This document shows, in pieces, positions 28,806 through 58,083 of a stretch of 64,000 nucleotides of DNA. Position 1 is the first letter of the stretch. Each line of letters begins with the position of its first letter. The stretch lies in the NCBI RefSeq assembly GCF_964355755.1, contig NC_092677.1, forward strand, positions 10,872,101 to 10,936,100, in the 5' to 3' direction. The position numbers and the translations under genes are program-made. Source of the stretch: Antedon mediterranea. Its lineage: Eukaryota; Animalia; Echinodermata. The notes under the pieces are model-generated. The model searched no databases, was not told the origin of the DNA, and saw nothing but the letters and a program-made list of their open reading frames with translations.

Positions 28806-28881
28806 ACATACTCCCAGGTTGGTAAAATTATTCCATTGTCTACCTAAATTTAAGTATCAATATTAACCACCATTTAAGCTG

Positions 28882-33882: not shown

Positions 33883-36800
33883 ATGGCCACCTCTAGTAAT
33901 ACTTACTTTATAGTTATTGAAGACTTTGAAGTGGATAATGGTGTAAACAAAGGAAAGAAGATTGTTAAAGGAACTCTTTTGAAGTGTTTAAATGAAAATA
34001 TCAATAAACGTTCTTTGTATATGGTAACAGTGGATACAAATGGAATTTCTTTTGGTTTTCTGAGAAACCCGCATACAGTTAAAGAGATAAAATCAGAATA
34101 TGTGGATTATTTACTTGGGATACCTCTTATGAGAAGAATTGAGGCTTTTAAGGAAGGCTTCAGGCTCCTCAGAGCTGTGGAAGCAAAAGTTGGAGAAACT
34201 GTCAAAGTTCCTATCTTAATAGACCATAGAGAGTGTTTTGCAGACGCTATTATTCAATCCAAAGACAAAATTGATGATGAGAGAGGTCGTTTATTTGGTG
34301 TTGAACTACTTGTAAGTTTTAAACTTATATTAATAATAATAATTGGTTATCCGCACTTGGCGGATAACCCCTTGTTATTGTCACAATCTTTTTTTTTTTC
34401 TATATTCTTCTTTCTTGCCACGAATTTTGATTGCAGCATATCTCTATTTCTGGCCAAATTTCTGGCTCCAATAATGTAGTTTCATTTTTTACCCTTAATA
34501 AAGTTTCCTCGTGCGTGCAGTGCGTTAGTAGAGTAAACAAAATAACATTCGGGAAATGGTAGAGTCTAACGGAGATTTAGCTAAACAAACACGTGCATTT
34601 ATTGCGGACTATATAAACAGCAAGGCCGGCCGCCGGCTTCGGTGTTGTTGGGTAATAAATAATCGAGCCGGGATGGTATAAATTTTTCCCCCGACAGAAA
34701 CGTTTTTCCCTGTGCTTTGGCCTATATTATCTGCACGTTCAACAACGATACGAGTGTTCGTTTGCTAGAAATATTTTTAGCATATACGACGTACCGTCGT
34801 ACATAATTTTGTAGGCCTAGGCCTGCGCTAACTGCACTTTCGCACCTCTTGAGCATACCCAATCTAAAAACATTCACCCGCTGCACGGCGGTGACGGTGG
34901 GTGACTGTAAAAGTCTTAGGACACGATTTTCGCGTTGTACGGAAGCCACCAGCCAAGCGTAAAAAACAAAAATAACATAGCCTTCAGGGGATTTCTGAAA
35001 ACTGTAGAACTTATTAACTTGATAACTGTATGAATGCTGTACGATTAAAAACAATTTGAACAATTGTTTTGATCATATAAAATACAACAACAATTATTTT
35101 TTTTAATCATACAGTGATTTAGGCATGGCTCTCTCTCCCCAAATGCCTTACAAAAACGTTCAGGGAACAGTGTATAGACCTATTGACATAGATAAATTAA
35201 CTAAAATGTTTTTACCATTATATATCAACAATTTTTAATTTTGGCTAATGACCGATTCATTTGGCTAAATAAAAAAATTGGACTTGATTAGATAAACTGA
35301 TTTGACTAAAAAAAATATTTTGACTTTCGCCAAATGTTAGTGCTACCCCAGTGACGTCATCGTATGGCCACTCGAATATAAAATATAGGATTTTTTTCTC
35401 TTTCGTCATAGCTCATCACATTTAATGTAGCGCATCTCCACTTATCCGTATTCCATTTTTCCCTATATTTTGATATTGTTTAGGTCAATCAATTATCATT
35501 CACACCATTTACCATCAAAAGCATGAAACACTTCATCATTACAGTATATCAATATGATTGTTATAGGTTCTCAGATTGAAAAGTGATACTCATGATTAAA
35601 ACATTTTCTGGAAGCTGTAGAATTGTAGATACGAATTTTGCGCATCGGATGTTGGGAAGTCATCATGGCCAGTTGAATTATAAAAGTCGAATTTGCATAT
35701 TTTGCGTCATAAATAAGCGGGCATTCATATTCTACATATCCAAATTTCTTCAACACGTTAATATGTTGTTGCTCAGATAATTTTTTTCCAAAATTGCTAT
35801 CTACGTGTTTCATTTTGATGATGTCATCATGTTACAAATTGGATTAAAAGGTACCGAGATCGAGTCTCACCTTGGGAAATGAAAAAAGATTTTTTTTTAT
35901 TATCCGTATTGTGTGTTCAATGTTATTTCTTAGTGCATAGATTATAATTATTATATACATGATTTATAATGAAATCTAGATAAAAAGTAACTTATGTCTT
36001 TATTATGTAACAAATGTGGTTTATGACATTATACGAATTGTGATACCGGCTATTGTATTTACATTAGCAAGATCCTACCATATATTATTAAATAATTAAA
36101 TTCTGAGAAAATCAATCAATCAATATATCTTTAAAAAATCAATTACCGTACTGACGCGGGTATAAGCCCATACTCGGGTATAAGCCCACCCCCGACTTTT
36201 GACTAATTTTTATGAAAAATGAGGCACTCGGGTATAAGCCCACCCATTAATTCGAAGATCTAGTGTGTGTCATAATACATATTTTTGTATTTGGCGATGT
36301 CCATACACCGAATACACCTACCTACCTTTGATCATAACCAAGCTAGGCTAATATACGCTAGGCCATATGAGGCCTAACGGTCCTGTTTTGTTTACACTCC
36401 ATCGCGGTCGAAGATCGCTTCACACACGACGCTACATACAAGTCGCCAAAACGGAAAACCACTATTTGGTATCGGCTGCCATAAACAAGCTTATTAAATT
36501 TCTTTGGTACATTTCTATTTAACGAACATTGTATACTTGCTTTTCTGCTTGATAAATTCTTGTTCAATTGATGTTTAAAATAAGATATTCTACGATAAAT
36601 TACACGAACTGTAAGCTTAATTTTCCGACACTCTACACCTCGTGTATTTAGAGGCAACGTCGTACACGTGAGGGCGCTCGCATGGTGGAAATACACAGTG
36701 TGCATGTGCTGTTTTGACGATCTGCATTTTTGGATCCTCGGGTATAAGCCCACCCCTCAAACTTGACGTGATTTCATGTTCGAGGGGAGTGGGCTTATAC

Positions 36801-39800
36801 CCGCGTCAGTACGGTATCTTTATTTAAATCGATGCATAACCTATAGTTCGTCATAGTGACAAATTAAATCTAGTTTAACTAGAAAAAAATTTCTTAATGT
36901 AGTATTGTAACTTTTATTATTTTTGTTTTTTTTTGTCATTTTATTTTATTTCAGAAAAGTACATTTATAAGTATAGCAATATGCTCATTCTCCCACCACC
37001 ATTTTTTTAGTTTTTGTTTTTCAATACATCTTTTTTTTTCTATAGTCCGATAAAGGTTGTGGTTCAACTGATGGATGGTTTTGGGATAAATATTACTTCA
37101 AGTGTGAGAAGGATTGCGGGTTGTTTGTGCCTTTTGACAAATTGATATTTGATTCATCAAATTATGTAAAGAATATCATTGATACTTTCAAACCTGGAAC
37201 AAAGGTCACTTGCTTCACTAATGAGACAAGAGATAAATGGATAAAAGGTGTGGTGAAGAAACTGTTCCCACATCAACAACCAATTTTTGCTGCAGTTGAA
37301 TTTGTAAGTCTGCCTTTGCTTTGAGAATTCAAATCTCTTAAGCAATCTCTCAAATAGTTTTCTTAGATTTTTTTAGATGGAGATGGATAATTAGGGATAA
37401 AAGAATTACAGTAGTTTAGATTAAAAAACACTGTATCTTTGCCATTTAATTTTTTAATTACACATCACATGCCATGACATCTGATTGGTTTAGAAAGAAA
37501 GGCTTTTTTTTTTTAAATTTGATTGCTTTGTACTTTTTTTAAGGATGGTTATGTAAAAGAACTCAATTATACTGGACAGTTCGGCAGTCAGTTATTTTTC
37601 GAACCTATGGAGAACGTAGCACTTCTGGAAGTTAGTTATATGAAACCATCTTCTCTTTTTGAAGGTATGAATTTATAAAGTTACTATTGTTTCATGGTCC
37701 ACTGACTTAATCTATAGTTCCAGTGTTACAATGAGGTGGGAAAGTATTAGTTCATATGGGGTACAGCATATTACCAACATTGTAAAAATCATCATTATTG
37801 TGTGTGGGGATGTGTGCAACATACATATTTATTGTCACAATAAGCACATTAAATCAAGAATAGAAAAAATTGACGACTGAAGGACAAAATGAGATAATAA
37901 AGTCTTGATTTATTTTGCTTATTCGCCCCTTTGAAAGTTAGTCTCTAACTTATGGCTGAAACTTCTTATGGTGATTGTTTCAGTGTTCCTGCAGGTTTTA
38001 CTTAAATTGGTTTACTGAATACTAGAATAAAGGCAAATCAAGGTAAAATTCTGTAAAAAATGTAAACCATTGTTCAGCAATATAGTTTGTTTTTGGTATA
38101 AGCATATAATTAATATTGGAATGGAGTTGTGACTTGGTGGTTATAATGCTTGGCTACCAATCCTGGGTTCAAGTCCTGTCATATGTCAGGATTTTTCTAA
38201 TGACAAACTCCACTCCCAAAAACTTGTAATAAGACTTTGTTTATGTAGAGCATCTTATGTATATGTTAGTCTTGTAAATGGGATTACAACCTTAAAAAAG
38301 GATAGTGAATGAATTTAATTATTAATAATAAATTGTTAATTATTAATTGTACTTTCATCATATCCAGAACTTATTACACATGTGTATACAGCATTATATA
38401 ATAATAATTAATACACATATTAAAGGGACACAGGATCAATGTAGACACCCTTTATTTGGACCTAATGGTGACCTCAGTCTTACTGTATATCTATATATAA
38501 ATTTACGTAAGGGCAAAATTCGGTAAATCGCACGTTATTTCTAGAATGTTTCCTCGATGGTATATAAAGTTGGTTTGAATCTCGGTACTGATTTTAACCA
38601 CCTGATGTAACCCTGTTTACGAATTAAATTGAGTTAGATAATTAGTTATTGACAATTAAAACGAATTTAGGTTTAACAATTTGCCCCAAATAGGGGTGTT
38701 TTCTGATCGTGGTATAAACTGTCTAATGGATGTCCTCTTGAAAAATACCTGCACACAATAATACGAGGATGCTTCGCATTTTCCTATCTCCTCCTACGAT
38801 AATTTTTTTTTTAATAGCTGAAAACCGGTTGAACAGCTCGAGTACAGTATACAGTATATGTTGAAGACAGGCTGATTTTCTTTAAAAAAAATACTGATTT
38901 GATAGATTTAATATATGTTTATACAAATGTATTGACTTGCGATGAATGGAACATTCCAATCTCTCAGACTTCCAGTTTGTACAGGGCTGCAAATTAAGGG
39001 GTATTTGGTCGCATTTGCGACCTACTTTTTCTGTTTGCGACTAAAGAAACAGAATAGGTCGCGCATAGCGCGACAAGATCGTCTGCTTGTGCGAGTTGTT
39101 TCAAATTGAAGTCGGGTGTGTTTTCCCTATTTCAAACACTGTGTAATTTAATCTCTCTACTATACTACGGAAGGCTCAGGAGTTGCAACTAGTCACCGCC
39201 GCCGCAAAGGAGTCAGGTTCATTCAAGCGTACAAAGCCCCAAACATTTTACACTCGTTGTGATTGGAAGTTCGTCCATTTATTGCATGCTGCCTTACCCA
39301 ATCACACAAAAGAACACCAAACACACAGCACAGTGTGACGCGCGGACGACACAAACCTCGTGGAAAATCACCTCCGTTTTAAAGAAGGAATATAAAATCA
39401 ATTGTACCGCCGTACACAGAAGTTAGCCAGGGCGGGCGGCGGCGGTAGATACAAAGGATTGTCGCCGCGCAGTCATCAGCATTTTTTAGGCAGTATGTAA
39501 TTAATGATATATATAATAATATCTATTCATTATATAGATTAAACAGCAGTATTGTTTATCAGTAGATTTAATACTTTATTCCAGATTCTGATTATCGAAA
39601 ATTATATATCAGAGAAAATACCGCAACTTTTCCTACGAAGTAGCTTCGTAGATAAAACAGGCTACGTTGTTGGCTTTGTAGGTTACATTGTTTGGCTTCG
39701 TTAGTAACCTAAATAAACAACCTCACGATGTTCTTAGTAAGTAACAAGAAGGTGTGAAAATTATTATTTAATGTGTTATTTTTGACTGGCGGAGGAGGAC

Positions 39801-42800
39801 CAATTGTACATAATGTACTAAGAAATATATAATATAATAGTTTTTATTCGTAAATGTTTCATTCGTGTGTGTTTTTTTACTCTCAACGGCGAATATAAAT
39901 TTCCCACAATGTAAACGTAGAGACACGATCCAACACAATGAACTATGCCAACTAATAAAAATAATATAGCAAACGTCCAGTCGATCCAGAAAGATGCAAA
40001 CAAAAAAATCGTAAACAATTCATTCTAAATATAGTATCAGAACGTTCAATCGGTCGCTCAAAAAGCCTGCCGACAGAAGACCGTAATTAATACAGACCGA
40101 GTTTTTTGGTCACATGTCATGAAACGCGATACTCTGTTTTACCACCGCAAACCTCTCGCATGTTTTTTTTTACTCGGTACGAGGGGGGGATTGCTACAAA
40201 ACAGTGTACCTGAATTTTGCGTCACATGAAACGTAATACAGCTCTAAACTGTTCCCACGGTTCGCACGTTTTTCCCCTCCAAATTCTGGTCGGGTCTTTT
40301 GTTGTAATAATAATTTACCATGGATGTAATTTACAAAGGCCTATGTTAAATCTTAACATGGAATATATATTTATTTTGCATATATTTTGTTGGTGTCCTA
40401 GCCAAGGTGTTGTTGTTTTTATAATTCGCTAAACCAAGGTAGGATTGAATCATGTAGGCCGCCGAAACTCTCTCTGCGTGAGCTGATGGCCTCGGGCCCG
40501 ATTTCGTCTCGTCGGCGGATGTCCTGCCAAATTAGGACAACCGATGTGTAGGGCGGCTACAATTAAAAATTAACGTCTAGGATTTTAATTAGCCAACAAT
40601 ACATGTTTGTTTCCATTGTTTATGCTCCTAACTAAAGGCGATGACATTGGTGTTTACAAATTACTAACCCTACGAACCACCCTACGATCGACGTGTAGAT
40701 ATTATCATAAAATCGTAGGCATGGCAACGAACAATACTTTGGAAATTATAGGATATGTTTAGCGAACAATGACCTACGATCTATTTACGCGTAGGCTACG
40801 AAAGGTTACGCGTATATACAAAGCAGTAATTTGTTTCGGTACCGTAAAAATAATAGATCTTGCGTGAATAGGCCTATAAGTGGCGCATCAGGACCAGTGC
40901 CTAAATGTGCATAACCCAAATTAATTGAATTCTTCAGTGCTGAATTTTTATGTGCTCAGAAATCGATTGAAACAACCTATAATTACTCAAAAATCCCCCC
41001 CCCCCCCAAGCGGGGCCATTGGCGGCCCTCTGACCCCCAGCTTAAGGTTGTACTGTATTTCATTTGTGTACACCCCCACCCCCCCCCCCCCACTAAACTA
41101 AAAACGGATCTGCGCGGATGGGGTTTGAGGGAAGGGGGTTAGTTGTCGATGAAAAGGTGCTACTAAAATAATTGGTGGTGCTACCAAAAATTATTATGAG
41201 CCATCATACAAATTTGATAGTGCTACCAAGTAAAAAAGTTAATTTGCAGCCCTGTTGTAGGTAAATTTATGAGCCCTTGGTTTAACACAAGTAGGTATTT
41301 TTGGTCGCCATATGAAACGAAATTTTTTTACTGTGAATGTGGTTACTGTTAGATATATAAACACATATACAAAGAACATTTATTACTGTGACTGTGGGTA
41401 GGCTCTACTGCTGGATATATAAACACATAGGCCTATAAATATACATATACACATAAACACTTTATTACTGACAGTTGCTTCTCAACGTTTGTATTAATTA
41501 ATAATTATAAAAAATATAAACGTCGCAGTGGTGTATTGTTACATGTACTTTACTATTCCAATCGACTATGACAGGGATAGTTTTAACTCTAATGTTATAC
41601 AAAATACATATTGGGTTTGTTTAAATGAGTTAAAATAAAAAATTTGGACTCATTTTTAAAAATGTTGTTACAACCGCTAATGTAGAAAACGCCAGCTAAT
41701 GTCAATGTAGAACAGTCCACCGCTTACTGTATGTAGTAAAACCTCCAGCTTATGTAGAAACACCAACAGCTTATGTAGTAAATAAAAATCAACACCAGCT
41801 AATGTAGAAACAGTCAACAGCTCAATGATGAGAAGCGGTCCCTTAACAGAGACAGTGGTCATTCAATAGAGGTGGTCACTTACCAGATGTCATTGTGATG
41901 GGAGATGGTCGATTATGAGAAGCAGTCCCTTAATAGAGATGATTGTCCTTTAAAAGAGGTCGTCACTTACGAGAGGTGGGGTCGTTAAGAGAGGTGGTCC
42001 TTTAAAAGAGTCGTCACTGACGATTATGAGCGGTCCTTTAATAGAGAGAAAGAGGTCGTTGTCCCTTAAATGAGGTGGTCACTTACAAAAGGTGTGGTCC
42101 TTAAGAGAGGGGGTCGCTTAGGAGAGGTGGTCGCTTACGAGAGGTGGTCCCTTAACAGAAATGGTTGCTTACCATGTGTGGTCGTTTTAGAAAGTTGGTT
42201 GCTTATGAGAAGTGGAAAGACTGATAGCTAAGTAAAGATCGATGCATTTGCACATGAATGAGACATTTTTGTAAAATATATAACATTTTCTACATTAGCT
42301 GGCGATAGTAACTACATAAGCTGGGAGGCAATTTTCGTTACTACATAAGCTGTTGACTGTTTCTACTTTAGCTGGTGTTGATTTTTATTTACCACATAAG
42401 CTGTTGGTGTTTCTACATAAGCAGGAGGTTTTACTACATAAGCGGTGGGTTGTTCTACATTAACGGCTGTTTCGACATTAGCTGGCGTTTTCTACATTAA
42501 CGGTTGTAACAGATGTATTGTCCCCAAAAAACATGAAAAATGAAGATCAATTAAATCAGACTTTGAATATGTTATTTTGTAGTTTTAATAAAGTTAATCA
42601 CTTCCATAGAAACAAATACGAAAACAAATTATATTATATACAGTATATATACACTTATAAAATGACCAAACAAATGGTTAAATTCAACCAAAAAGCCATT
42701 GGCTGGCAGCCAATTTGACCATGTTTTGCTTTAAATTACATTTTTTCAGGTAAATATATAATTTTTAATTTGAAATCGCCAGTTTTTTTACGCTGAAATT

Positions 42801-45800
42801 ACTGTGTATTCGAGAACCATCTGTGGACATGACCTAGGTGGTACGCGAGCAAAGTGAGCGTACCATCTACTTGAAATAATTCATTATAAGGCTTCAACCC
42901 TTTATAAGCATAACACAGACATTAAGTATCCCGGACAATTGAAAAGAAAGACATGAAACAACTTAAAGAACTAGCCAATGAAAGATCAGACTGGAAGAAA
43001 CTGGTAAAAGAGATTTACGGAGCAGCCCAAGCGGAAATGTCAGCAGACTTTTCAGCGGAAAGGCAGTAATCAATCAAGGCTTCAACAGTAGTTATGATTA
43101 AAAGGCAAAGAGGGAATAGTTTCTCAATCATATTAATGCTTAAATCTAAAGTGCCTTATTTATATCTTTACACTATCTTTTTTAGGTGGTAAATCTAGCA
43201 AATCTTCTATAATCAACAATGTAGTTTCCTTTTTCACACCGGATAAATCAATGAACAGCAGGACTAACACATATGAAGAAGAAGTCATAAAGTCAAAAGC
43301 GGGTATTTTCTCCCTGTGATTCAAACAATAAATTGTTAAATTTACACATTATATCCTGTTTGCAGCAGCAATTAGTAGCAGCAGTAACAATTAGAATTTA
43401 TAGCAGCAATTAGTATTAGTAGCAGCAGCAATTAGTATTAGTACCAATTAGTATTAGTAGCAATTAGTATTAGTAGCAGTAGCAACAGTTAGTAGCAGCA
43501 GCAATTAGTATTTATAGCAGCAATTAGTATTAGCAGCAGCAATCAGTAGTAGTAATAGTTGCAGCAGCAACAGTTAGTTACTGCAGCAATTAGTATTAGT
43601 AGCAGCAATCAGTAGTAGCAGCAGCAACAACAGCAATTAATATTAGTAGCAGTAGCAACAGTTATTAACAGCAGAAATTAGTATTAGTAGCAGCAGCAAC
43701 AGTTAGTTGTAGCAGCAATTATTATTAATAGGAGCAGTAGCAATTAGTATTAGTAACAGCAGCAGCAATTAGTGGCAACAGCCATGTACTAGGGACAGCA
43801 GCAATTAGTAGCAACAGGGAAGTAGTAGTAGTAGTAGTAGTAGTAGCCAATTAGTATTAGTAGCAGCAGCAACAATTTATAGCAGCAGCAATTAGTAGCA
43901 ACAGCCAAGTACTAGGGACAGCAGCAATTAGTAGCAGCAGCAATTAGTAGCAACAGCCAATTAGTAGTAGTAGTAGTAGCCAATTAGTATTAGCAGCAGC
44001 AACAATTCATAGCAGAAACAATTAGTAGCAAAAGCAGCATTTAGTGCTCAGTAAAAATTAGTAGTAGAAGTATTCGTAGTAATTAGCACACGACGCACGG
44101 CAGTAGTTATCTAGGATACTGTAATTGCTTTTTAAAACATGACACTGATTCTTATTAACTGACATTTTTATCATCTAGTTGCAAATAATTCATCACCATA
44201 TTCTTCATGGGAGAAAGATTACTCAAAGGGTAGCAAAAAAAAGAAAACACGAAATGAGGAAGAAAGAGGTATTCAACATTTTTAATTGTAAAGTATAGAT
44301 AAGCCCATTCAAACTAGTAGCAATTTGAAATTGGCAGATTTTTTTATGTTTATGTTTTTTTATTAGTCACATGGGTAGAAGAAGACCTGATGTTGAGGAT
44401 TTCAAATACTATGTCACTAAGATGGTTAGAGTTTGGAAAAAAGCTTAAAATAGCCCAAAAGGAGCTTGATAAATTAGGTAGAAAGACTTATTCTTCTAAG
44501 GAGAAATCACGCCATATGCTTCAGGATTGGCAAGAAAATAATGATGAGACAGACAAGCTAGGAGTACTTGCACGAGTTTGTAAGGAGCTTGGTGAAGAAA
44601 ATTTGTGTAATAAAATACTCCAAGGTAGATATTTTTTGTATTGTTATATTTTAATGTGTTTACAATTTTATACTTGTGGATGGAAGTTAGATTTTAAATT
44701 AGCGTTGTGTCTTACCATCAAGAAATGAAATTGTACTTGAGAGTTTTGAGTTTGAATGTTACTGAGACCAAGTCTTCAATAGGGTTTGAAAGCTGAAATG
44801 CTAAATGCCTATTTTAGTCATGTAGTAGAGACTACTCCAATTTTTATCCATAAGCAAAATAGAAACATACAAATCAATGAAAATGATAATGTAATGGGGA
44901 AAAATTACTTTTGATATTTTTATTTATTTTTATTTTATTCAATCGAAACAAAGCTAGAACTGTTTACAGCACCTTGATTGATCCTAACATTGATCAAGGG
45001 CTTCTCTCATAAAAATGATAATGTAATGGGGAAAAATTACTTAACTTAAATATTTCTATTGATATTTTTATTTATATTTATTTTTATTTTATTCAATCGA
45101 AACAAAGCCAGGACTGTTTACAGCACCTTGATTGATCCTAACATTGATCAAGGGCTTCTCTCGTCCAGTGCCCACCTTGACCAGAGGAAAGGCATGGGCC
45201 AATACATCTGAGGCAGATAATAGATGCAGGTGCTGCCATAAGAGTCAGCAATGCTGATTTCAAATGCTTGTGGGCATGTGCAGTTTTTGTATTTGCTCTT
45301 TTCATCTTTTATAATTTGTTTTTATTCTACAATTATCAAAGGTTTGGATGATGATATTTTAAGATTTGTAGCACAAGAGGCTAAATACAGCTGGGAGAGT
45401 CTTGCTGAACAATTAAATGTGTCTAACATTGAACAGATTAGAAAAAGAAAAAGTGGTGATCAGGAAGCAATGTGCTTAGAGGTACTGATGATTTGGAGAA
45501 CAAACCAATCACATGCATCAGATAAAGTTACATTTCTTGCATCTTCTCTTGATCAAATTAAATTAGAATCTGTGTCAACATTTTTAATTCAAGGTAAAAT
45601 ATTTATTAATTATCACATCTTCTTATACATAGATGGTCCAGGGTTGGCATTTATCAATTTTTGCTTATATTTTTGCTTAAGCTGAAATAGTTTAGAAGTA
45701 CTTAAGCAAATAACTTATAAATTCTTTTATTACTACAGTACTTATTTATAACTTATTTATCAAACCGCCTCAGCAGAAAATTTGTCTTAGGTAAATTTTT

Positions 45801-48800
45801 TCTTAAGACAAAAAAATCTTTGATTATGCGTGCGCATTATCTTTTTTGTCTTAGTGAAGATGGCGCTATTACATTTTATCTCTGCATTTTCACAACAGAG
45901 GGCACATTCTGATTATAATGCTTTTATTACTTAAAATAGAGAAAGAGCACAAAAGTCAGAAATACATACCAAAATCAGTTGCTGTAAACTCAAACCAATA
46001 CATCTTATAAAGTAGCTTCTGGATATTAGTCACACCGCAATATTAGTTTTACTCATCTAATTCCTAGGCCATCTAACTGAAAATCGATATCATTATTAGC
46101 ATCCATGATACCATGAATACTGCAATAGAATAGCCTTTCTAGATGTTATCCTGTAGTGACAGCAACAACTTCTCTATAAACATGATTCCTTTATATTGTT
46201 TGAATTAAATGAAGGAAGTTAACATTTCACTCGCACATTACAGTTATAGCCGTAACCTAAAATAGGGTTTTTCTTTAATGAGATTTAATCTCTCTGTTTA
46301 AAAAGTATATATGGCATATTTGAAGGCAGCAGAAATATATTACTCAGTTTTATTTTTTAGGACTTGACAGTAACTTTCTAGTACAACTTTCAGTTGAACT
46401 TTCAAAATCATGGCAGGATATTGCTAGACAGTTAAAAATGACAGAAAGGGAAATCATAGAAATTAAGAAATCATCTTCTGATGAGTCCAAACAGGCTCAC
46501 CATGCATTCATGACCTGGAAAAAACAACAACCTTCAGAGACTGATCAACTTGGTACACTAGCAAAGGCTCTGAAAACTTGTGGTCATGAGGAAATGGCCA
46601 AACACTTGATTGGTGGTATGTATACATTTTGTATATTCATTATTCATTTCATTATTTTTATCTTTTTCAATATTTACATTTAACTATAAAAAAAATGAAT
46701 TGGGGAAACCAGGGTCAACCTAAGCGAACTAAATCAATGTGGCAGAGCCGATCTGAACCAATCCCAATTCAGTTTACACAATAAAACAAAACAATTAGAA
46801 GGGTAAAAATAAAATGGTACAATGAATCAAAACTTTAGTTTAGTAACGCAACTTTAGAAATTTCACACCAACTCAGCCCCACCATAGTTCATGAGTTCTT
46901 ATTCAGGTATATTTATTCATAAAATAGAAATCAATAGTACAACGGCAGCCAAAAGGCTGAAAAGTAGTATTTTACAATATTTGATAAAAAAAATATATAA
47001 ATATGTATAAATAGTAAAACTTAAAATTTGTCCACCGGTAAGTTAAATAGTGCCAGCCTATTCAATATTCATTGAAACATCATCATTAATGCGTCAGGCT
47101 AAGAAAGGGACTGGTGAAGATCTAAATCTCTCTGTACGATCAAACGGGATTTTGAGTCGAGGCTTACACGCAGACCTTAGGGTTGTAGTAGATCTTTAGA
47201 AGGTGTCTTGGCTTTCTTAAGTATAATCAAAGTGTACAAACGTCGACATGCTTTAGCAACGATATCATTCAGGCGATTTATAAAATATGACATATCTAGA
47301 TGGTCGGAAATGTCACACTCACGTTATTATAAATGTATTAACAATTGAAGATATTTTTAATATGAAAAATGAGGTACTGGCCTATATTTTGAGTATTTAT
47401 TTTTAAAGGCAACAGAAATAGGAATTTTAAATAGATGAAAAACGACACAAACAAACCCATGGACTAGGCCTAGACTCGGATGTTAACAGTTTCATTTTAA
47501 TCACATTTCCCATTTCTGAAATTCAAAAATAATACCATATCATCTTCGTTAATATTATTTATGATGATAATAATACAAAAATGAAAAAATCTGCCTTTTA
47601 TAATCTATATATAAATTTACATAAGGACAGATTCGGTAAATCGCGCTTTAATTCTGTTTACTCGATGGTATATAAAGTTAGTTCGTACTTTCGGTACTGA
47701 TTTTAACCTGATGTAACCCTGTTTAGTAATTAAATTGAGTTAGATAATTGTTATTGACAATTAAAACGATTTGCCCCAAATAGGGGTGTTTTCCTATCGT
47801 GGTATACACTGTATGGATGTCCATCTTGAAAAATACCTGCACACAATAATACGAGGATGCTTCGCCTTTACCTATCTCCTTCTACGATAATTGTTTTTAA
47901 TAGTTGAAAAACTGCTTGAACAGCTCGAGTACAGCATCATAATCTTGAAGACAGACCAATTTTCTTTAAAAAATTCTATTTTGATGGATTTAATATACGT
48001 TTATACAAATGTATTGATTTGCGATGAATGGAATATTTCAATCTCTCAGTCTCTCCCAGTGTAATTATTTGGTTTAACACAAGTAGGTAAATTTATTGGC
48101 CCTTGGTTGATAAACTTAAATCAGTTAGATATTAGTGTTGCAATACTTTGACAATAATATTGTAAATACGTATTAACCATTTTTGGTCGCCATTTGAATC
48201 GCACATAATAATCAAATAAACTTTATTACTGACAGTTGCTTCTCCACGTTTGTATTAATTAATAATTACAAAAACGTTGTAGAGGTGTAACGCTACATGT
48301 ACTTTACTATTTAAATCGACTATGACAGTGACAATTTTAACACAAGGTATTAAGTCGCAAATGCTGTACTGTATTAGTGGTATATTATTTATAGGCCTAT
48401 AAAACATGAACAAATATTTCGTTCCTGAGTGGATATAGAATATATTTAAAAATTGTGCCTCTTTGTACCCATCCTCTTCCCTATCCCTCAACCCTAATGT
48501 TGCATACAAAACACACAAAAAAAGGCTTATTTTGTGACAAGTTTCTCTTTCGGAAGTAATTCCCAGGGTGCTAATTTTAGTTGACTACATAAATCATTGT
48601 GTCTATTTATTCGTTTCTGTAAACGACAATGTATTATAGATCTGCGGTACGTACATTTGAAATCGCAATTTTTTACGCTGAAATTACTCTGTATTCGAGA
48701 ACCATCTGTGGCCACGACCTAGTTACAATAAAATTACTTTTACCTTTTTACTTCATATGTATGTTTTGTGATAGATCTGGAGGATGGGGATATTCACAAA

Positions 48801-51800
48801 ATCGCAATAAGGCTGAAAATTGATCCGACGATTATGTGTACAGCACTAAATTTCCAACTTTCACATAAGATATATTTTGACAAGAAATTTTCACGCGATT
48901 TTGCTAAAATAAAAGCAATGATTTCAAAATGGAGAGCACAGCAAAATCGTAGAGAAGACAAGAAACAAAAGTTAATAAGTTTATTGAGCAGTAATGGTTT
49001 TGATTCTGTTTTAAAAGAGGTTTTCTCAAGTAAGTAGGAAAGTTATGTTATTGAGGTAATTAATAGGAATTATTTAGAGAATTGAGTATGTACCCTTCTA
49101 TCATTAGGAAGATTACTCTCTAGATGTAACAAATATGTTAACAAATTTTAATGCAGTTTATTTCCAATAAGGTCAAAACAAATGTTAACTTCTAATAGAG
49201 ATCATCAGTGTTTCTTACTTTGCTTATCGTAAGTGATTTTATTATTTACAGAAGAATCCATCCAAGCAAGTCAAGTTTCAAGATCAGAGATAAGTAAGAA
49301 CTGTAAATTACAAGACATATTTCTTGCACTTTTTACATCACTGCACCCAGATTAACTTTTAATATAAAATAGGTTCAATTAAATACTGGTTTAATAATTA
49401 ACCAAAATTAAAATATAGACACAAGATCTTTTCTGAGTTTATTATTGTATTTCAGTTCATATATTTTAGTAATGAACTGGAATTAATTATTTTACAGTTG
49501 TATCTACAATCTATGGAAAAAACGTATCAAGACAAGATTACATACCACAGACAAGTATTTTTGTATTTATTAAATGACACATCTATAGCTATACCTTGTT
49601 TGCTTCCCTGTAGAACTTAACTCTTAGCATGAACTGTGTTCAACCCTTTTATTGTTTACTGGTTTAAAAACAATTAATTCATTATTGAATATCTTATTAT
49701 CAATTAATTTTAGTAATGAATATTGATTAATAAACAGGCCCCTATTGATCATAATGTAATGCGATATTTATATAGCGCTATTTCATGAAGATCAGAGCAC
49801 TGTCGACTTAGATGTTACACCTTTTTTAACAATATTCTTGTCCCCTAAGGGTCACATCCTGTCCATCGGCAGCCAACTACGGCGCCATTACGTCTGTCCA
49901 CGACAGTGTCTGTGTGAACTAGTACACCGGGTAACCCCCTACTTGTCTCGAAAGATGTACTAGGTTCTTTAAAGTGCACACGAGCAATATGCATACACTG
50001 GACCTACTGTACGGTTTATAGTCCTTTTCCGAGAAGACTTGTTCTACCACCAGAACCATGGACCGCGTGAGTCTCGAACCCTTGCCGATGTTATGGCTAT
50101 GGATTATGGTTCCACTGTCTTAACCACTCGGCCACTCACTCACTATTGATGGGTTTTGTCATATGTGTCAATATCATCTGTGGCCAGTTGTTGCAGATGT
50201 AGATGGTCATACAGTTCCTGTATTTTTGTCCTTTTCTGATAAGTAGCCACAATTATCTTCCATTTAATTGTGTCATTGTCTTTTGATTATGTCCCCATAT
50301 TTTTGTTTTGTGACTTCCAATTTTCTCCTACCTTATCATAGATATTCCTTGAACCAAACATAAATTTCGAATGAAAAAGAGTCTGTTTATTCTCTTGTTT
50401 TAGTTCCCTTATTTTTATCACTGGTTTAACAATTAACCAAAAATATTTATCAACAGCAGAATCAACACGCCATAGAAGCAACATATCTCATCCAAGAAAC
50501 AAACCAGAAACAGGTAAGATCTGTTTCTATCTTTTAGTACAAGAAATACTTTGTTTGTTCGGCATTCAATAATTGTAATCCTTCAAGCGCCTTTGAGCAT
50601 GTTTTTTTAATGAAAAGGGCTCTATATAAATGTGGTATATTGTATAGGCACATCCTTCAACTCGTTTAACATTACCATTCTTTTTTTTAGGACTTGATAG
50701 TGACTTTCTTGTACACCTTTCTATTAAACTTTCAAAGTCATGGCAGTATGTTGCTAGACAGCTTAAAATGGCAGAAAAAGAAATCAGAGAAATCAAGAAT
50801 TTATCTTCTGATGAGTCAAAACAGGCTCACCATGCATTCATGACCTGGGAAAAACGACAGCCTTCACATACTGATAAACTTGGTACACTAGCAAAAGCTC
50901 TGAAAGATTGTGGTCATGATGAAATGGCAAAACATTTGACTGGTGGTATGTACTGTGTACTAATCTCTAGAACAAGTCCGTCTTCCTATAACAATACTAA
51001 AAGAGGATGATTTTTATGTGTAGTACTCTGATAACATGTGTCTTGTGTATCATTTTGTATTTGCACCTCATGACAGTCAATATTGCATGGTAGTATGTAA
51101 TTATTGAGACATAACTTTTTCTTTTTACATGCTTAAGTTTTCTATGTTACATCATTTTTATAATCAGTTAAAATATTACCATTTAACTAGAGGGAAACAA
51201 ACTCAGCAAGTTCACCCTCTAAGTTGATATTATACAAATATTGCCTGCTTAGATGTAAAATATATAATTTGACATCCCTGAGGAAATGATATTTTGCTCA
51301 AAGAAATATAATTCTCGGGAGCATAATATCATTTCCCGAAGGGATGTCAAATCTTATATTTTACTGATATAAAAGGTGATACCTGTTATATTATATAGCC
51401 AACAACAAGTAGAATATCTACTGGGTCGGGTAGCTAGGCCTCCTTTATGTAATAAGCCTGCCTAGTTAGCATTGCATTCACCTTACCTTGCGAAGAAAAA
51501 TATACAGATAATTACCAATTAATGATTCCTTGGCAATAAAATATTCACTTAGCCCTAGGTATTTTGAATTAACAGAAGAATTTCCATCAATAACTACATT
51601 AATAATGATAATAATATTATCAGGTAGGCCTAGACTGAATAAATAATTCGTCTTCTTTGAGCTGAATGTTCAGTGTGCTGCGCGTACCAGGCTACTACTG
51701 TGAGTATTGACAGTCTTTCGTCGCATCTATAGAGGGCGAATAACAAAATGAGGGCGCTATGTATGCATAGTTTAAATAGTTGATTTATTTCTTCAAGCAA

Positions 51801-54800
51801 GTTATGTGGCGTGCCGTGTAAAACGTGGTCTTGTGATGATGTGGACTAATCTTCGCGAGTTCAAGTCCCAGTAGATGACTTTTGTTTATTTATCGCCAAA
51901 CGCGAGTGTTGCCACATGCAAATTACACAGTCAATATCAAACTCCTCGAGAATTTACTGGATTTTATATGTTTAATGACAGGGACACGATAATCACGCAA
52001 AAATTACTCGGTCAATATCATCGTATTTGAGGAAATATACGATTTATTTTATAAGGTTTTTGTAATATTTTTATAAAATAATTCTGAGTGGATTATTAAC
52101 CTTAAGCTATGTCTACACTATCAAAGTTCATGTGACAAACAAATATAATGTGCCCATATATGGACAGGATGATGGCTTTAATTTGTTTTCTATTTAGAAG
52201 ATGAAGAAGAGAATATCATGGAGATGGAGGTTGATGTGGATGACAGTTTTGTTTCAGATGAAATATTAGATATTATTGCAGAAGCATTAAAAGAATTTGA
52301 CGTAAATTCACTGCAAATATATTTCAAGATAAGGAGCTCATCTAGGCAATCTTATACAACAACCTTTGACAAATCAAATTTGTTGAAGACATTAAGAAAA
52401 ACTGAGACTGATTTTAAATCTAAGCTTACTGAAGCTCTGGATAGTGTTCACAGGACAGATTTGGCTGACCTATTAAAAGGTACTATACAATTATTAGCAT
52501 CATATCTACTGAAGAGACTCTGCTACACATTATCCTGGACCCACACAACAATTGTAATGGGTTGACCAGGCCTACTACAATACAAGAATGGACCCACATA
52601 ATTTTAATGAGTCAAAGGGCCCACTGCAATAGTAATGTAGATTGGACCCACACAAAAATTGTAATTGGCTGACCAGACGCATTTAATACAATATTATCAT
52701 TACATTGGTAAAATATTTGTGCCTCCCAGCTATGTATACTTTGAGGGGAATAGAGACTTCTTCCTAAAATGAGGAATTTTATTCAATTGATTTATTATTG
52801 ATGTTTACAGAAAAAACATCTCAAGAAGACAACATTACAAACCAGACAAACAAACCAGGAAGTGAAGAAATGGTTAATACTAGACCATTTTACCAGCATC
52901 AGTTTAGCATTGGAACAATGGTTGAAGTAACTGCTGTAGGCATGTCCATGTATGGTGTAATTAAATGGATTGGAGATATACCAGGAATGGAACACAAAGG
53001 TCGATTTGCTGGTGTGGAGCTGGTAAGTTTCTTTGTTAAAAATGTTTTGAATAACAAAAATTCTGTACCTACTGTACTTCCTGAGATTGTAAACTGAACT
53101 GTAAACTAAATTAGATTATTTAATTAATTAATTTTTAATCCACAAAAATGCAAATTTCTTTTCATATATTTTTGGTTTATCTTTGTGTGTTGAATAAACA
53201 AGAAAAACTGCTGTAAATCTTTATGCACTTAACTTTTCTATCATGTTGTACTTGGTAATTTCTCTAGGAGGAAGATTGCTCTGCTGCAACAGATGGCAGG
53301 TTTGGTGTTACACGTTACTTTAAAACTTTACCACACAGGGGTTTTTTTATACAAATATCAAAATGCAAGCCTGATGGTCGGTTTTCCGGTCCTATTGAGC
53401 ACACTGGAGGAGCACAAAGGCGAGGTAATTATCATATAAATTGTTCTACATCATTTTTATAGCCATTTTTGTATACTCTACAATTCAATGGTTATAAAAT
53501 ATCGTTCCTGCTTTCCCATATACTTTCTCAGTAAGTTTTATTGTAACTAAACAACGTTCCCTTCTGTTTTCTATTTTGATTATTATAGACAATGTTTTTG
53601 ATAGCCCATCGATAAAGGATGTCACGGTTCCACCCATGATGTCAAAGGTTCATCCACACGGAGCAATGGGTATCCAAGGAGACCAGAACTCGTGCTACCT
53701 TGATTCAACTATTTTTAGCATGTTTGCATTTGTTAGCGTTTTTGATGAGTTACTGCATCGCCCAAAGAATGCTAATGATATTGAAGGGTACAGTGAGGTA
53801 CAGAGAGTGCTTAGAGAGGACATAGTTTACCCATTAAGAAGGTACAAGTATACAGTACATACACCTTTATGCTTTTAACAAAAATAATATTACATTTATT
53901 ACATTATTATATTACATGTAGAAGATTACATTTTATCATAATAAACCATAATGTCAAAGTAACAGAAAGGTAAAATTCTATATAATGAGTGAGAAGTCAA
54001 ATTTATATATATTTATATGGTATAGTTTATTCCATTCTGTAAGGGGCGGGTTTCCCGCTGTTGAATGAGTATGAATAAAATAAAAATAAAATAAAATAGA
54101 AGTCAAATTCAACATTTTATTCTTTTTATTGTATCATCCTTAGATGATAATTGATGTTTCTTCTTATGGTTATTAGTTTTTATATATATTGTCATCCAAG
54201 ATTCATGGACCAATAAATTAGATTTTGTAATTTATATGTCCATGGTTGAACACTGAAGACAATCTGGTGAGGCCCTCTATTGCCCACGGTAGACACAATG
54301 CTGTGATCACCAGGAGATAGCCTACAGCTTTTGAATAGTCTAGTTCACTAAAGTTTTTTATTGCAATAATGTATACAGGACCCACGGATCAATGTTCCAT
54401 CCAAAGGACAATGAATCAACGACAGTAAAGCATCTAGCCTAAGGACACAAACCAAATGTCACAGACAGGTCTCAAACTCTGGCCTGCTCACATGCCAGTC
54501 CAATTACCATTTTTAATGAAAACTAATCCTTTGGAAGAGTAGGGTTTACCCCGGTGCACTGGTCCATTCAGCCCCTGTCATTGTGGACAGACAAACAGGC
54601 TTCTTCAGTGGCAGCATTCAACACAAAATGACCCTTAAGCGTGGTTCCCACTAGCGACGCAACGCAAGGACGCAACGCAAGTGAATTGACCAATCACAAG
54701 CGATGGCTTATTCGCTTTTGATTGCTAACTGTCTATAACTTCGCTTGTTATTGGTTAAAACGCTTGCGTTGCGTTTACGTCCTTGCGTTACGTTCTAGTG

Positions 54801-57800
54801 GGAACCAAGCTTTAGGGGCCGGGATAAGAAATTTACGTGTGTGTCATCATCTCAGTTAGTCTGCAGCCACAGGTTATTCCCCAACATTTACTTAAGAAAG
54901 CCTTCTTAAATTGTTTATTCTGTTGCTTCATTTTATAAAACATTCATTTTCTGAATTTTTTAGTTTGTTTATAGATATATTTGTATTATTTTTTGTTTAT
55001 AGGAATGGTTTAGTAAAATTTGAAAATATATATCAACTTCGAAAACTTCTGGATAAACATGGAAGTACTGTTGGTCTGACAGATCAGGAGAAAGACCCAG
55101 AGGAGTTTCTTACAACACTTTTACAAGAAGTATTGAAAAGTGATCCACTCTTTAAAATCAAGTATGTTATAAGAGACTTTGCTATTACTGTCTTATTAAT
55201 ATTTTTTTTTTTTGGCTTGTACCGTATTTATTATTTGTTTTTTTTAAATTTTCTTTTTCAATTGTATGCAAAAGGGAAAAAAGTAGTAAGCTTTCCCAAT
55301 TTATATTGTAAAAATTATATATTATGTATCTTCTTTGTCAAAATAAATGTGAAAATGAATGAATATAATTATGAATATTATATTAATATATTTATATTAT
55401 TTTTTGGTACAGGTTGTCATATCGGTCAAAGGTCAAAAAACCCATTTTCATTACATCAAATAGAAATGTATATACTTTGAACAATTTGACATAAAAATTA
55501 GCTCTCTGTGTACCTGAAATATGGGTCAAAGGTCAAAAACTGTATTTCCAGTTCATTTTTTGGTTAAAGTTTTCAATCGACTTGATAGGAAAGTCCTTGC
55601 TTTGAACAATTTGACTCCAAAAGCAAAAGTCTGTGGTCAGTAGTTTTAAAGATATCACATATTACTGCAAAACGGCTGCCATTTTGAATTATGCAAATTA
55701 TGTGAACCGCAAGGGTCAAATTTGTGGCGCCCGGCAGAAATTGAAATAGTATAGGACGGGCAACCTATACACAAAATTTAAACCAAAATATCCCAAACAG
55801 CCCCCACTAGAAGAACTGATGTAGTGTAATTAGATTAAAAATGTTTTAAAAAATGTTAGTAGAGACTTTGGTAACAAGCTTCAATCATGGTAGCCCTAGA
55901 AGGGTGAACCTTTGGTTGCACAATATTTCTAACAGTGTTTTGTGCAAGCTATTTTAAATTAATTTCTTTGTATCTCTTTTAGGGTTTATGGATCACCAGG
56001 CATGCAAGAAATGAACTTCTATCAGATGTTCATGGAGCGTGACACCACGTTGAAACAAATTCCAACAGTCCAGATGCTTTTGGAGCAGTCGTTTCTTGAT
56101 ACGGACATCAAGCTAGCTGAAATCCCATCATGCTTTGTGGTACAGATGCCTCGATTCGGAAAGGCTTATAGGTTGTACGAGAGAATTCTACCAACACTTG
56201 AGCTTGATATTACACAAATGCTGGACAACTGTAAGTTATTTTACACAATAAAAATAGTAATTTTCTAGTCTTTTAGTACTACTGTACATGTAGTTGTAAG
56301 TAAGTAAGTAATATTTATTGCTTTCCAAATACAGTACAAATATATAAAACAGTATAATGTAAATGAAATAAAAAGAGAAACATTAAATATAAAAATACAA
56401 GACTAGACAAGAAAATAAGCATGGAAAGCAGGGGATGGCCCTTTAAGCCCAGAGGCATTATCAACATTGACCATACCTATAAATGAGTCACCAATATTTT
56501 TTAATAGTAACAAATCTCATTCACATCATTTGAGAAGTATCCCCTTATCCTATATAAGTAAAAATGTCACGATGATTACTGATCAATTTATAGACTTATA
56601 TATTTTGGATTTGTTTATTAGTTCCCAGGCCATGTATTGTTTGTGGAAAACTAGCATCATTAGAATGCCGTGAATGCAGCAGTGCAAAACTAGGAGGTGA
56701 ACAGATAGCGGGTTACTGCGAGGATTGTTACATACTTGTAAGCAAAATGCCTTAGATTTTTTAAGAAACGGGGAGAACTCAGATGTTTGTTTTAATGTTT
56801 CATTAATTTATTATTTATTTTATTCTTCATATCCAGTTATACTGTACCTTATACCATTCATTCATTCATTGCAAATTGTACAAAAAAGTTTACATAAACT
56901 CCTTTGAAAGTTAAATCTTGCATTATGAATTATTTATTACACAAAAATCGTATGTATTACCTAATAATAATAATACTATATATTAATATGTTATACAGCA
57001 TCACAAAAAACCTATAAGAAAAGCACATGACGAGCCTAGAAATTTGAAAATTCAATAAATATCTTGTGTATATTTTATTATTAGAGTTACACCTACTTCT
57101 ATATAATACTATTAAAAAATGTTTTTACAGCGTCACAGAAAAGCTGAGAGAAGAACACATGAAAAGCCACGAAAATTGGAAGTTCCTGAGGACTTTCCAA
57201 ACGAACTTACAGAGGATGAGGAGTGTGATGCAATAAGCACTGAGAAAATGGAACTATTTGCTGTTGTGTGTATTGAAACAAGCCATTACGTGGCTTTTGT
57301 AAAATCTGGAGAAGAAAAACACTCAAAATGGTTGTTCTTTGACAGTATGGCTGACAGAATAGGTAAGATTTCATCTTTCTTTGTTGAAGTGGATAAGTTA
57401 TACCAAAGATGTAACACTTGATGCAAGTCTATAACCAGGATTTGTACAGGCGTAATACAATTTCAATCTTTCATCTAAATAAGTAATAATTGAAAGTATA
57501 GACATGTCTCTGTAGTCTTTTCTTCGTCAGTACATCTATAAATGGATGACTAACTGTAGTTAGGAGCAGGGATTCTAGTAGACAAACTTATGATTTTACG
57601 ATACTTCAGGAAATTACCTGTGAGGGCAGAGGGTATTACTAAATAGTAGCATAGTAGGCTAGATGAAATTTGACTTCTGCCGTGTTAGTATTGGCCAAAA
57701 ATTAGACCTATTTACTAGCATTTGTTTCAAGAAAGGAAAACCAGAGTTAGTTTGAACCTTATGAACCCATAGTACCAATCCTGCTGTTTGTAAGCTTAGA

Positions 57801-58083
57801 TGTTCAGCAGTAGAGACATATGCCAGCATGTATACCAAAAGTAATGACTCCCCCATGTACTATCAACTGTTGCCACATGGCAAGCAACATGTATTGTATT
57901 TTTTCAGGAGACCAGGATGGTTTTAACATCCCAAAGATAACAGAGCTTCCACACTTCCGAGATTGGATTGAACACCCAGAAAAACATGAACATTTAAGTG
58001 ACAAAGAGTTGGAAGAGCCATTAAGAAGACTATTATGTGATGCATATATGTGCTTCTACAGAAGTACTACAGTGCATCCATAG
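33883..58083 (+). CDS. CYLD: CYLD-type ubiquitin-specific protease with an inserted death-domain array, ~1426 aa if all exons are used; exons 33883-34311, 37046-37303, 37544-37664, 43186-43302, 44179-44268, 44367-44624, 45342-45593, 46361-46615, 48775-49029, 49252-49293, 49498-49554, 50457-50513, 50691-50945, 52198-52479, 52811-53022, 53268-53424, 53589-53841, 55003-55161, 55983-56230, 56622-56737, 57131-57362, 57908-58083
   Basis: CAP-Gly 1 (LFGVELL/SDKGCGSTDG..YFKCEKDCGLFV), a degenerate CAP-Gly 2, and CAP-Gly 3 (YGVIKWIG..FAGVEL/EEDCSAATDGRF..RYF). USP Cys box GIQGDQNSCYLDS, EKDPEEFL, QMPRFGK, B-box CIVC..CREC..CEDC..H..H, His box MELFAVVCIETSHYVAFVK, WLFFDSMADR and RRLLCDAYMCFY. All junctions are GT-AG and phase-compatible (4281 nt). 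The small linker exons are less certain. Confidence 0.88.
34343..36876 (+). mobile_element. Probable non-autonomous Helentron/HINE-like element in a CYLD intron
   Basis: 5' hairpin GGTTATCCGC-acttg-GCGGATAACC. The 3' end has a degenerate subterminal copy (gcataacc), the hairpin ttcgtca-tag-tgacaaa and ctag-ttt. Confidence 0.45.
36146..36814. mobile_element. Tc1/mariner (pogo-like) MITE
   Basis: Perfect TIR CCGTACTGACGCGGGTATAAGCCCA with TA on both flanks, and internal repeats of ctcgggtataagcccaccc. Confidence 0.85.
38982..41254. mobile_element. Non-autonomous hAT-like element with a 5-bp target duplication
   Basis: TIR CAGGGCTGCAAATTAA / TTAATTTGCAGCCCTG, with TTGTA directly on both flanks. 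No transposase ORF was seen. Confidence 0.75.
41666..42511. mobile_element. TGT...ACA-ended non-autonomous element with ~150-bp TIRs and internal ~20-bp repeats
   Basis: TGTTACAACCGCTAATGTAGAAAACGCCAGCTAATGTC / GACATTAGCTGGCGTTTTCTACATTAACGGTTGTAACA, with flanks aatgt/gatgt. Internal gagaggtggtc-type repeats run 41830-42215. Confidence 0.75.
42905..43075 (+). mobile_element. 3' fragment of a non-LTR retrotransposon (RTE-like)
   Basis: Encodes LKELANERSDWKKLVKEIY, like the A.DR..WR..V C-terminus of RTE-clade ORFs, followed by a short (aatc) tail. Confidence 0.5.
43362..44085. repeat. Low-complexity (AGC/AGT-rich) degenerate tandem repeat
   Basis: Repeated agcagcaattagtattagt-type units and (agt)n runs. 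Confidence 0.9.
47604..48722 (+). mobile_element. Second copy of the Helitron-like family
   Basis: A|TCTATATATAAATTTAC start, long alignment to 38490-38975 and 41300-41600, and it ends gaaccatctgtggccacgacCTAG|T. Confidence 0.7.
49835..50143 (-). mobile_element. tRNA-headed SINE with a Deu/Nin-like central domain; an older copy lies on + at ~54530-54830
   Basis: Minus strand: gagtggccgagtggttaagac (A box) .. ggttcgagac (B box) .. aaggactataaaccgta..ggtcc..gcactttaaagaacc..tcgaga..gtaggggtt. This resembles the remembered DeuSINE core. Confidence 0.65.
54638..54811. mobile_element. Complete PIF/Harbinger-like MITE inserted into a SINE copy
   Basis: TIR AGCGTGGTTCCCACTAG / CTAGTGGGAACCAAGCT with a TTA duplication (54635-54637, 54812-54814). 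It splits the SINE sequence gaccct-taggg. Confidence 0.88.
56999..57059 (+). other. Duplicated mini-exon or candidate alternative terminal exon of the CYLD-like gene
   Basis: ttatacag|HHKKPIRKAHDEPRNLKIQ* is homologous to the start of the next exon (RHRKAERRTHEKPRKLEVP) and has the same phase. AATAAA overlaps the stop. Confidence 0.55.

Follow-up and report, generated by a model that had tools for sequence, protein, structure and literature searches.

A gene for a CYLD deubiquitinase with an internal array of death domains (DDs) was found in the crinoid Antedon mediterranea, in a window of 64,000 nucleotides (contig NC_092677.1, positions 10,872,101 to 10,936,100 of the forward strand; coordinates below are those of the window), and since the same layout is the CYLD of all five echinoderm classes a single-genome oddity is ruled out. 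The gene is located at 33883-58083 on the plus strand, where a three-frame translation revealed CYLD-like and death-domain-like open stretches, and GT-AG splicing of its 17 exons gives 3918 nucleotides (nt) and 1305 amino acids (aa) with the terminal stop as the only stop codon, bearing out the single phase-compatible frame claimed in an initial annotation made from the sequence alone. The domain order is CAP-Gly1, a weak CAP-Gly2, six repeat exons (DD1 to DD6), CAP-Gly3 and a USP domain with a B-box, and the six repeat exons, each of 252-282 nt, are all of phase 1-1.

The first USP exon is 100% identical to the RefSeq protein XP_071959312.1 (Antedon mediterranea, named 'uncharacterized protein'), in which all six repeat exons are joined to CAP-Gly3 and the USP in one model. 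Comparing this protein with the 17-exon model, 1054 of 1055 shared residues are identical and one junction residue differs. The RefSeq model adds five phase 1-1 micro-exons absent from the 17-exon model, giving a full model of 1426 aa, and begins at the first Met of exon 3, thus without exons 1 and 2. The exons are as follows.

33883..34311, plus strand: exon 1, with the start codon, the N-terminal region and the beginning of CAP-Gly1; missing from the RefSeq protein (Anneissia collinearity; CAP-Gly1 50.3 bits against a shuffle maximum of 7.7)
37046..37303, plus strand: exon 2, with the rest of CAP-Gly1 and the beginning of the degenerate CAP-Gly2; no Met; missing from the RefSeq protein (Pfam CAP_GLY E 2.3e-5, below cut-off; Anneissia collinearity)
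37544..37664, plus strand: exon 3, end of the degenerate CAP-Gly2; RefSeq start Met at 37607 (spliced model, RefSeq)
43186..43302, plus strand: micro-exon A, Ser/Lys-rich linker, phase 1-1 (RefSeq model mapped to the window)
44179..44268, plus strand: micro-exon B, Ser/Lys-rich linker, phase 1-1 (RefSeq model mapped to the window)
44367..44624, plus strand: DD1, one exon, phase 1-1 (Pfam Death E 4.7e-9; six helices)
45342..45593, plus strand: DD2, one exon, phase 1-1 (Pfam E 0.0022, below cut-off; 48.7 bits with the crinoid-free profile; six helices)
46361..46615, plus strand: DD3, one exon, phase 1-1 (Pfam Death E 2.4e-12; AlphaFold2)
48775..49029, plus strand: DD4, diverged, one exon, phase 1-1 (no Pfam Death match; crinoid-free profile E 2e-5; ~54% identity to Anneissia DD4; six helices)
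49252..49293, plus strand: micro-exon C, phase 1-1 (RefSeq model mapped to the window)
49498..49554, plus strand: micro-exon D, phase 1-1 (RefSeq model mapped to the window)
50457..50513, plus strand: micro-exon E, phase 1-1 (RefSeq model mapped to the window)
50691..50945, plus strand: DD5, duplicate of the DD3 exon, 79% aa and 87% nt identity (Pfam Death E 6.4e-12)
52198..52479, plus strand: sixth repeat exon (DD6), acidic leader and degenerate death-domain-like helical unit (unproven), phase 1-1 (11.0 bits against a shuffle maximum of 10.0; low structure confidence; spliced to the next exon in read run X1)
52811..53022, plus strand: linker and first part of CAP-Gly3 (Pfam, X1 contigs, structure-profile match)
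53268..53424, plus strand: end of CAP-Gly3 and linker (Pfam, X1 contigs, structure-profile match)
53589..53841, plus strand: USP exon 1, Ser568 equivalent and catalytic Cys codon at 53693-53695 (RefSeq, alignment; X1 loose ends at splice neighbours)
55003..55161, plus strand: USP exon 2 (spliced model, RefSeq, X1)
55983..56230, plus strand: USP exon 3 (spliced model, RefSeq)
56622..56737, plus strand: USP exon 4, B-box zinc module (Pfam, alignment)
57131..57362, plus strand: USP exon 5, catalytic His at 57284-57286 and Asp at 57341-57343 (RefSeq, alignment)
57908..58083, plus strand: last coding exon with stop codon (spliced model)

To address the repeats a profile was built from 33 sea-star and sea-urchin death domains only, hereafter the crinoid-free profile, and run alongside Pfam. 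Pfam Death scores above cut-off in three of the six repeat exons (DD1, DD3 and DD5), DD2 falls below cut-off and DD4 and DD6 give no Pfam Death match, while the crinoid-free profile gives 52.7, 48.7, 59.9, 26.5 and 62.2 bits for DD1 to DD5 (shuffle maxima 7-19). An AlphaFold2 run with a 68-row alignment predicted six helices for each of DD1-DD5, with a block confidence (predicted local distance difference test, pLDDT) mostly of about 90 or more, and disordered micro-exon linkers on both sides of the array. DD1-DD5 thus score and fold as death domains, identified by Pfam for three and by the crinoid-free profile and AlphaFold2 for all five, and are predicted to form five folded units. The core repeats are spaced 81-93 residues apart and therefore abut. 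A Foldseek search with the whole model returned only USP domains among the matches listed.

DD6 is less clear. It reaches 11.0 bits with the crinoid-free profile against a shuffle maximum of 10.0 (none of 1000 shuffles reaches the score), an hhalign probability of 4.7% and a pLDDT mostly below 50 within the array and 53.5 when folded alone, its 50 listed fold matches then being generic helical bundles (best Z 6.3). In sea stars, brittle star, urchins and sea cucumber the last repeat, directly ahead of CAP-Gly3, is likewise weak, and DD6 matches it in position. DD6 is read here as a degenerate repeat whose identity as a death domain is unproven, so that of the 'about six' death domains first annotated five stand.

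That the DD and USP exons share one transcript, as proposed initially, is supported by the RefSeq model and, from DD6 on, by contigs of read run X1, which was taken as spliced from the contigs themselves, no run being on record as RNA. X1 covers exons at a depth of 30-130 while introns are empty apart from one low-depth piece. The survey of its joints spans DD6 to USP exon 1, the 5' part of the DD6 exon being without X1 cover, and revealed a GT-AG joint 52479->52811 (DD6 to CAP-Gly3) in two contigs, with 23 nt on the short side; the CAP-Gly3 intron is also spliced out and loose ends read into USP exons 1 and 2. X1 diverges from the window by ~5-13% in two variants, and as the indels in exon-covering contigs net to multiples of three it points to a diverged individual or a close relative. 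Another run, X2, is unbroken across the DD6-USP stretch, as DNA would be.

In the 5' part, exons 1-3 align over both junctions with the N-terminus of Anneissia japonica XP_033125271.1 (42% identity over 729 columns), and the join of exons 1 and 2 to the rest of the gene is proposed from homology only. Exon 2 and the start of exon 3 contain no Met, so that an incomplete or alternative 5' end would yield the RefSeq start. CAP-Gly1 and CAP-Gly3 are clear. The weak CAP-Gly2 reaches 11.6 bits (shuffle maximum 9.1), though it is collinear with the orthologue in Anneissia. All three CAP-Gly units (33883-53424) are interrupted by a phase-0 intron at an almost identical point, directly after a GVELL/AVEF/GVEL motif, which supports exons 2-3 as a worn CAP-Gly2.

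The USP matches human CYLD (2vhf) with E 3.3e-106 and a template modelling (TM) score of 0.89, and the catalytic residues, which the initial annotation had called intact, are indeed so, C818/H1093/D1112 (RefSeq numbering) aligning with mammalian C601/H871/D889 when the 956-aa vole CYLD is used as proxy for residue numbers. The USP has an inserted B-box, whose six Cys and two His align with those of 2vhf. At the ubiquitin-contact positions 475/487/507/545 of CAP-Gly3 Antedon has M/V/E/F and the equivalent of Ser568 is Ser, the roles of these positions being described in PMC8511506. From this homology a specificity for K63 and M1 chains as in vertebrate CYLD is predicted. Of 12 echinoderm rows 11 have an intact triad; in Patiria miniata LOC119737423 (XP_038067696.1), one of four DD-CYLD loci, whose contigs are equal in length, the catalytic His is replaced by Arg and five DDs are kept, suggesting a likely pseudo-deubiquitinase. 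All 13 annotated isoforms of this locus keep DD1-4 and one skips the last weak DD.

Position 622, where Leu is required for SPATA2 binding (PMC5031558), is His in Antedon. His is also found in the DD-less CYLDs of amphioxus, lamprey, Limulus and Priapulus, and Leu in DD-bearing urchins, and loss of Leu622 was rejected as a sign of SPATA2 bypass as the residue does not track the presence of DDs.

When searching for related proteins with the C-terminal half of the Antedon protein, Pfam Death (PF00531) was found in 7/7 named echinoderm rows and in 1/113 others among the best 120 of 1879 matches, and with a Diadema query in 10/10 echinoderm rows and 0/110 others among the best 120 of 182. The DD-array layout is present in 11 species of all five echinoderm classes, cluster members counted: Antedon, Anneissia (split model), Acanthaster, two Asterias, Patiria (four loci), Amphiura, two Diadema, Lytechinus and Holothuria. 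In proteins that have N-terminal CAP-Gly domains the array is placed between these and CAP-Gly3, and the crinoid-free profile detects 3-8 death domains per echinoderm protein ahead of CAP-Gly3, an undercount because weaker repeats sit nearer CAP-Gly3. A screen of 387 USP-bearing sequences with this profile gave a DD match in 33, four of them from elsewhere and 29 of them echinoderm rows (many are isoforms and one is the present 17-exon model). Pfam scans of 30 and 54 selected matches found Death in echinoderm rows and Montipora only, the remaining representatives being screened by the crinoid-free profile only. In hemichordates and amphioxus CYLD carries three CAP-Gly domains and lacks a DD by both Pfam and profile, and the statement in the initial annotation that vertebrate and fly CYLD lack death domains agrees with their absence from every vertebrate or arthropod CYLD among the matches listed.

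No full-length echinoderm CYLD without DDs was seen among the best 120 of 1879 and the best 120 of 182 matches, within the length limits of the searches; the Antedon genome itself was not searched for one. In the two cases where an echinoderm USP model has no DD, the model is incomplete: a 606-aa model of Diadema antillarum is a C-terminal piece, 95% identical to the DD-CYLD of D. setosum, and in the Anneissia annotation, where array and USP are placed in two models, the USP model is marked partial and begins at the second CAP-Gly3 exon.

A USP tree of 42 rows, made with a quick method and with Holothuria as a long branch, places 12 echinoderm rows on one side of a branch (SH-like approximate likelihood ratio test, SH-aLRT, 96), with crinoids apart from the other classes. 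The tree follows the species tree, which indicates that the DD-bearing gene is the echinoderm CYLD itself, and the simplest reading of the sequences is that the CYLD orthologue gained its array before the echinoderm classes split. This split took place over 450 million years ago.

A best-hit comparison of 59 domains showed that repeats 1, 2 and 3 match their own-position counterparts among sea stars and urchins and are offset by one in Amphiura. Between the two crinoids, Antedon and Anneissia, DD1-4 correspond one-to-one (36-57% identity), and the best non-crinoid matches of Antedon DD1 and DD3 are first- and third-type repeats at only 26-32% identity. The deep branches of a FastTree DD tree are weak and no donor is named from it. 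The duplication linking DD3 and DD5 is exon-only (79% aa, 87% nt), with a ratio of nonsynonymous to synonymous substitution rates (dN/dS) of 0.41. Exon shuffling of phase 1-1 exons may have placed the first DDs in the linker before the class split, and later exon duplications would have tuned the repeat number, DD5 presumably arising from DD3 in Antedon.

The initial annotation had further proposed that the array stands in place of the TRAF2-binding and phosphorylation linker of vertebrate CYLD, which did not hold. Among the CYLD matches listed PF16607 is found only on jawed-vertebrate or unnamed rows, and of 16 rows tested for the PVQES motif only the vole has it; as DD-less invertebrate CYLDs also lack both, the array is not a specific replacement of this linker. 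A scan for TRAF-type motifs found TSQE in the Antedon linker, but such matches are short, scattered and uninformative.

As to novelty, the suggestion of an undescribed system stands in part. No describing paper was found, while the architecture is already in RefSeq and UniRef with precomputed Pfam Death hits, databased as 'uncharacterized' or 'CYLD-like' and visible to anyone making a RefSeq or Pfam query. The full-text literature search gave no title or abstract start on a death-domain CYLD; subscription journals lie mostly outside it and supplements of genome papers could list the architecture. CYLD is upregulated in Patiria pectinifera, the available text of PMC12154441 making no mention of its domains.

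Several variants were observed among the CYLD matches. The CYLDs of Diadema setosum and Lytechinus variegatus have three N-terminal CAP-Gly-like units, four in all, and Patiria miniata LOC119736553 has three DDs, no CAP-Gly3 and a second partial USP domain, which may be a tandem-copy fusion or a misannotation. In Anneissia XP_033125271.1 the four DDs orthologous to Antedon DD1-4 are followed, at residues 671-798, by a different DD and then a P-loop-like stretch, which we take to resemble the start of a Roc GTPase; DD-Roco genes may share exons with or donate them to the Anneissia array, or the model may have run into a neighbour. Other CYLD fusions combine a protein kinase, CAP-Gly and a CYLD-like USP region, or CAP-Gly, USP and a C-terminal RING finger. 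Three tick CYLDs (1277-1537 aa) show UCH only in Pfam, their long N-terminal part being without CAP-Gly or other match.

Elsewhere in the window the following features were noted.

about 2080-8363, minus strand: Nup93/Nic96 nucleoporin gene (Pfam PF04097 E 1e-40)
10153-11443, plus strand: gene with a 251-aa first open stretch and a hydrophobic segment, no Pfam match at E 0.05
about 15278-23548, minus strand: two tandem similar small membrane-protein genes (weak MARVEL match, E 0.0017)
27222-28844, plus strand: broken frames ending in a GIY-YIG domain (E 1.5e-4), resembling a decayed Penelope-type retroelement
59446-59763, past the CYLD stop codon: tandem repeat of a 15-bp unit, with several open frames on both strands

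By binding to one another, death domains build signalling assemblies. When the DD profile was compared with solved structures, the closest among 32 matches listed at E <=0.1 were the DDs of PIDD, RIPK1, THOC1, FADD and TNFR1 (E 2.5e-9 to 5e-5), with no MyD88 or IRAK chain among those 32 (E up to 0.1). On balance we lean towards the view that the array docks CYLD directly and multivalently on death-domain assemblies, most likely of the TNF-receptor/RIPK1/FADD/PIDD type. The abutting, sequence-distinct DDs would act as a multivalent docking surface, and the docked CYLD, a predicted K63/M1 deubiquitinase, would trim ubiquitin chains at these assemblies, damping NF-kB output or tipping the complexes towards cell death. 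Mammalian CYLD is reported to reach TNFR1 only via SPATA2 and HOIP (PMC5031558). More tentatively, it is possible that a rewiring took place at the root of the phylum, in which a self-recruiting multivalent DD-CYLD reads or caps specific assemblies and edits their chains without the SPATA2-LUBAC bridge, separate captures in a coral and a bivalve making this a repeated evolutionary solution.

Several points weigh against docking or against the gene model behind it. The Anneissia annotation places array and USP in separate models, and the X1 joints begin at DD6, the least certain repeat, with a short side of 23 nt and in an animal diverged by ~5-13%. The repeats diverge fast, mostly to 14-29% identity within Antedon, and the dN/dS of 0.41 between DD3 and DD5 indicates only moderate constraint. 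Judged by sequence, likeness to RIPK1, FADD and PIDD names no partner, as the profile also matches the DDs of THOC1 and ankyrin, which are not immune adaptors. The loss of the catalytic His in Patiria with DDs kept fits a catalysis-independent role, and with Leu622 untied to the presence of DDs there is no indication of lost SPATA2 recruitment.

A role of the array on CYLD itself, where packing within or across molecules would oligomerise the enzyme or restrain it until a signal arrives, is not very likely, even though self-assembly is common among death domains and the repeats abut at 81-93 residues with their order kept across classes, as in a packed unit. Vertebrate CYLD is moreover described to dimerise via its B-box (PMC5031558). 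The repeats are sequence-distinct and not near-identical, their number varies from 3 to 8, and for the single DD that Montipora has at the same site a docking module is the easier reading.

An array acting as a decoy or cap that halts the growth of DD filaments, largely independently of the protease and perhaps freed by caspase or paracaspase cleavage in the flanking linkers, we consider unlikely. The Patiria paralogue that lacks the catalytic His and keeps five DDs is consistent with it, as are the disordered micro-exon linkers flanking the array. MALT1 cleaves human CYLD at R324, a site also cut by a mollusc paracaspase (PMC5978004), and this site falls in the CAP-Gly2/3 linker by the domain limits of PMC8511506. 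Against a decoy, 11 of 12 echinoderm rows keep the whole triad, and array and USP stay one gene in all five classes.

It is highly improbable that the array serves to anchor CYLD at cilia, microtubules or the membrane skeleton in a non-immune role, the best profile matches being PIDD and RIPK1, and CAP-Gly1/2, the microtubule-binding end of CYLD, being the more eroded part in Antedon. The matches of the profile to THOC1 and ankyrin DDs, and the microtubule association of CYLD and its activity in ciliogenesis (PMC5584213), would suit such a role. Finally, a gene-model artefact, with the DD exons always skipped or belonging to a separate nested or neighbouring gene, can practically be dismissed: symmetric phase 1-1 exons may be skipped without frameshift, Anneissia is in two models with the DD model ending in the P-loop-like, Roc-like stretch and the 606-aa Diadema antillarum model has no DD, but annotations of 11 species in five classes show this layout, DD6 is spliced to CAP-Gly3 in the X1 contigs, the USP model of Anneissia is partial, from the second CAP-Gly3 exon, and the 606-aa model is a C-terminal piece.

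CYLD balances NF-kB activation against cell death at innate receptors, where it arrives in mammals via SPATA2 and LUBAC, and a DD array in all five classes suggests a different route of recruitment in animals with greatly expanded innate-receptor families (for sea urchin see PMC2575513). The DD-CYLD offers a practical entry to the study of immunity, cell death and regeneration in echinoderms, and a natural tandem DD scaffold for the study of how DD assemblies are nucleated, read or stopped.

Compared with vertebrate CYLD (human 2vhf, 1ixd and 7owc/7owd; zebrafish 3wxe/3wxf/3wxg) the Antedon protein shares CAP-Gly3 and the USP with inserted B-box (~43-45% identity over the USP, at the TM score of 0.89 given above), and keeps the triad, the CAP-Gly3 ubiquitin contacts and the Ser568 equivalent. 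It differs in having five or six DDs in the CAP-Gly2/3 linker and an eroded CAP-Gly2, in lacking the PF16607 phospho-region and PVQES and in having His for Leu622. Canonical invertebrate CYLDs (the hemichordates Ptychodera and Glandiceps, amphioxus, most molluscs, arthropods and corals) have an orthologous USP but no DD by Pfam or the crinoid-free profile. A single DD, and no array, is found in the same linker in Montipora foliosa and M. capricornis (XP_068684378.1, XP_068724095.1; Pfam E 2e-13), the latter species also having a DD-less CYLD on a contig that differs in length, and in Solemya velum by the crinoid-free profile only (E 1e-6). The USPs of these proteins nest with corals and bivalves, and a coral-plus-echinoderm USP clade was rejected (approximately unbiased, AU, test, p 4e-90). 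Separate gains in echinoderms, Montipora and Solemya would be the simplest reading, but one old gain followed by many losses may also fit the tree.

Among enzymes recruited by a death-fold domain of their own are the IRAK kinases, RIPK1 and caspase-8, and to our knowledge no vertebrate USP carries a death domain. Recruitment of this kind is also known from the MALT1 paracaspase, with an N-terminal DD (PMC5978004), where a catalytic domain is likewise brought to an assembly by its own death-fold module. In MALT1, IRAK, RIPK1 and caspase-8 one domain or a tandem pair is situated at a terminus and the enzymes mostly drive the signal, whereas echinoderm CYLD carries 3-8 internal DDs on a deubiquitinase that normally brakes it.

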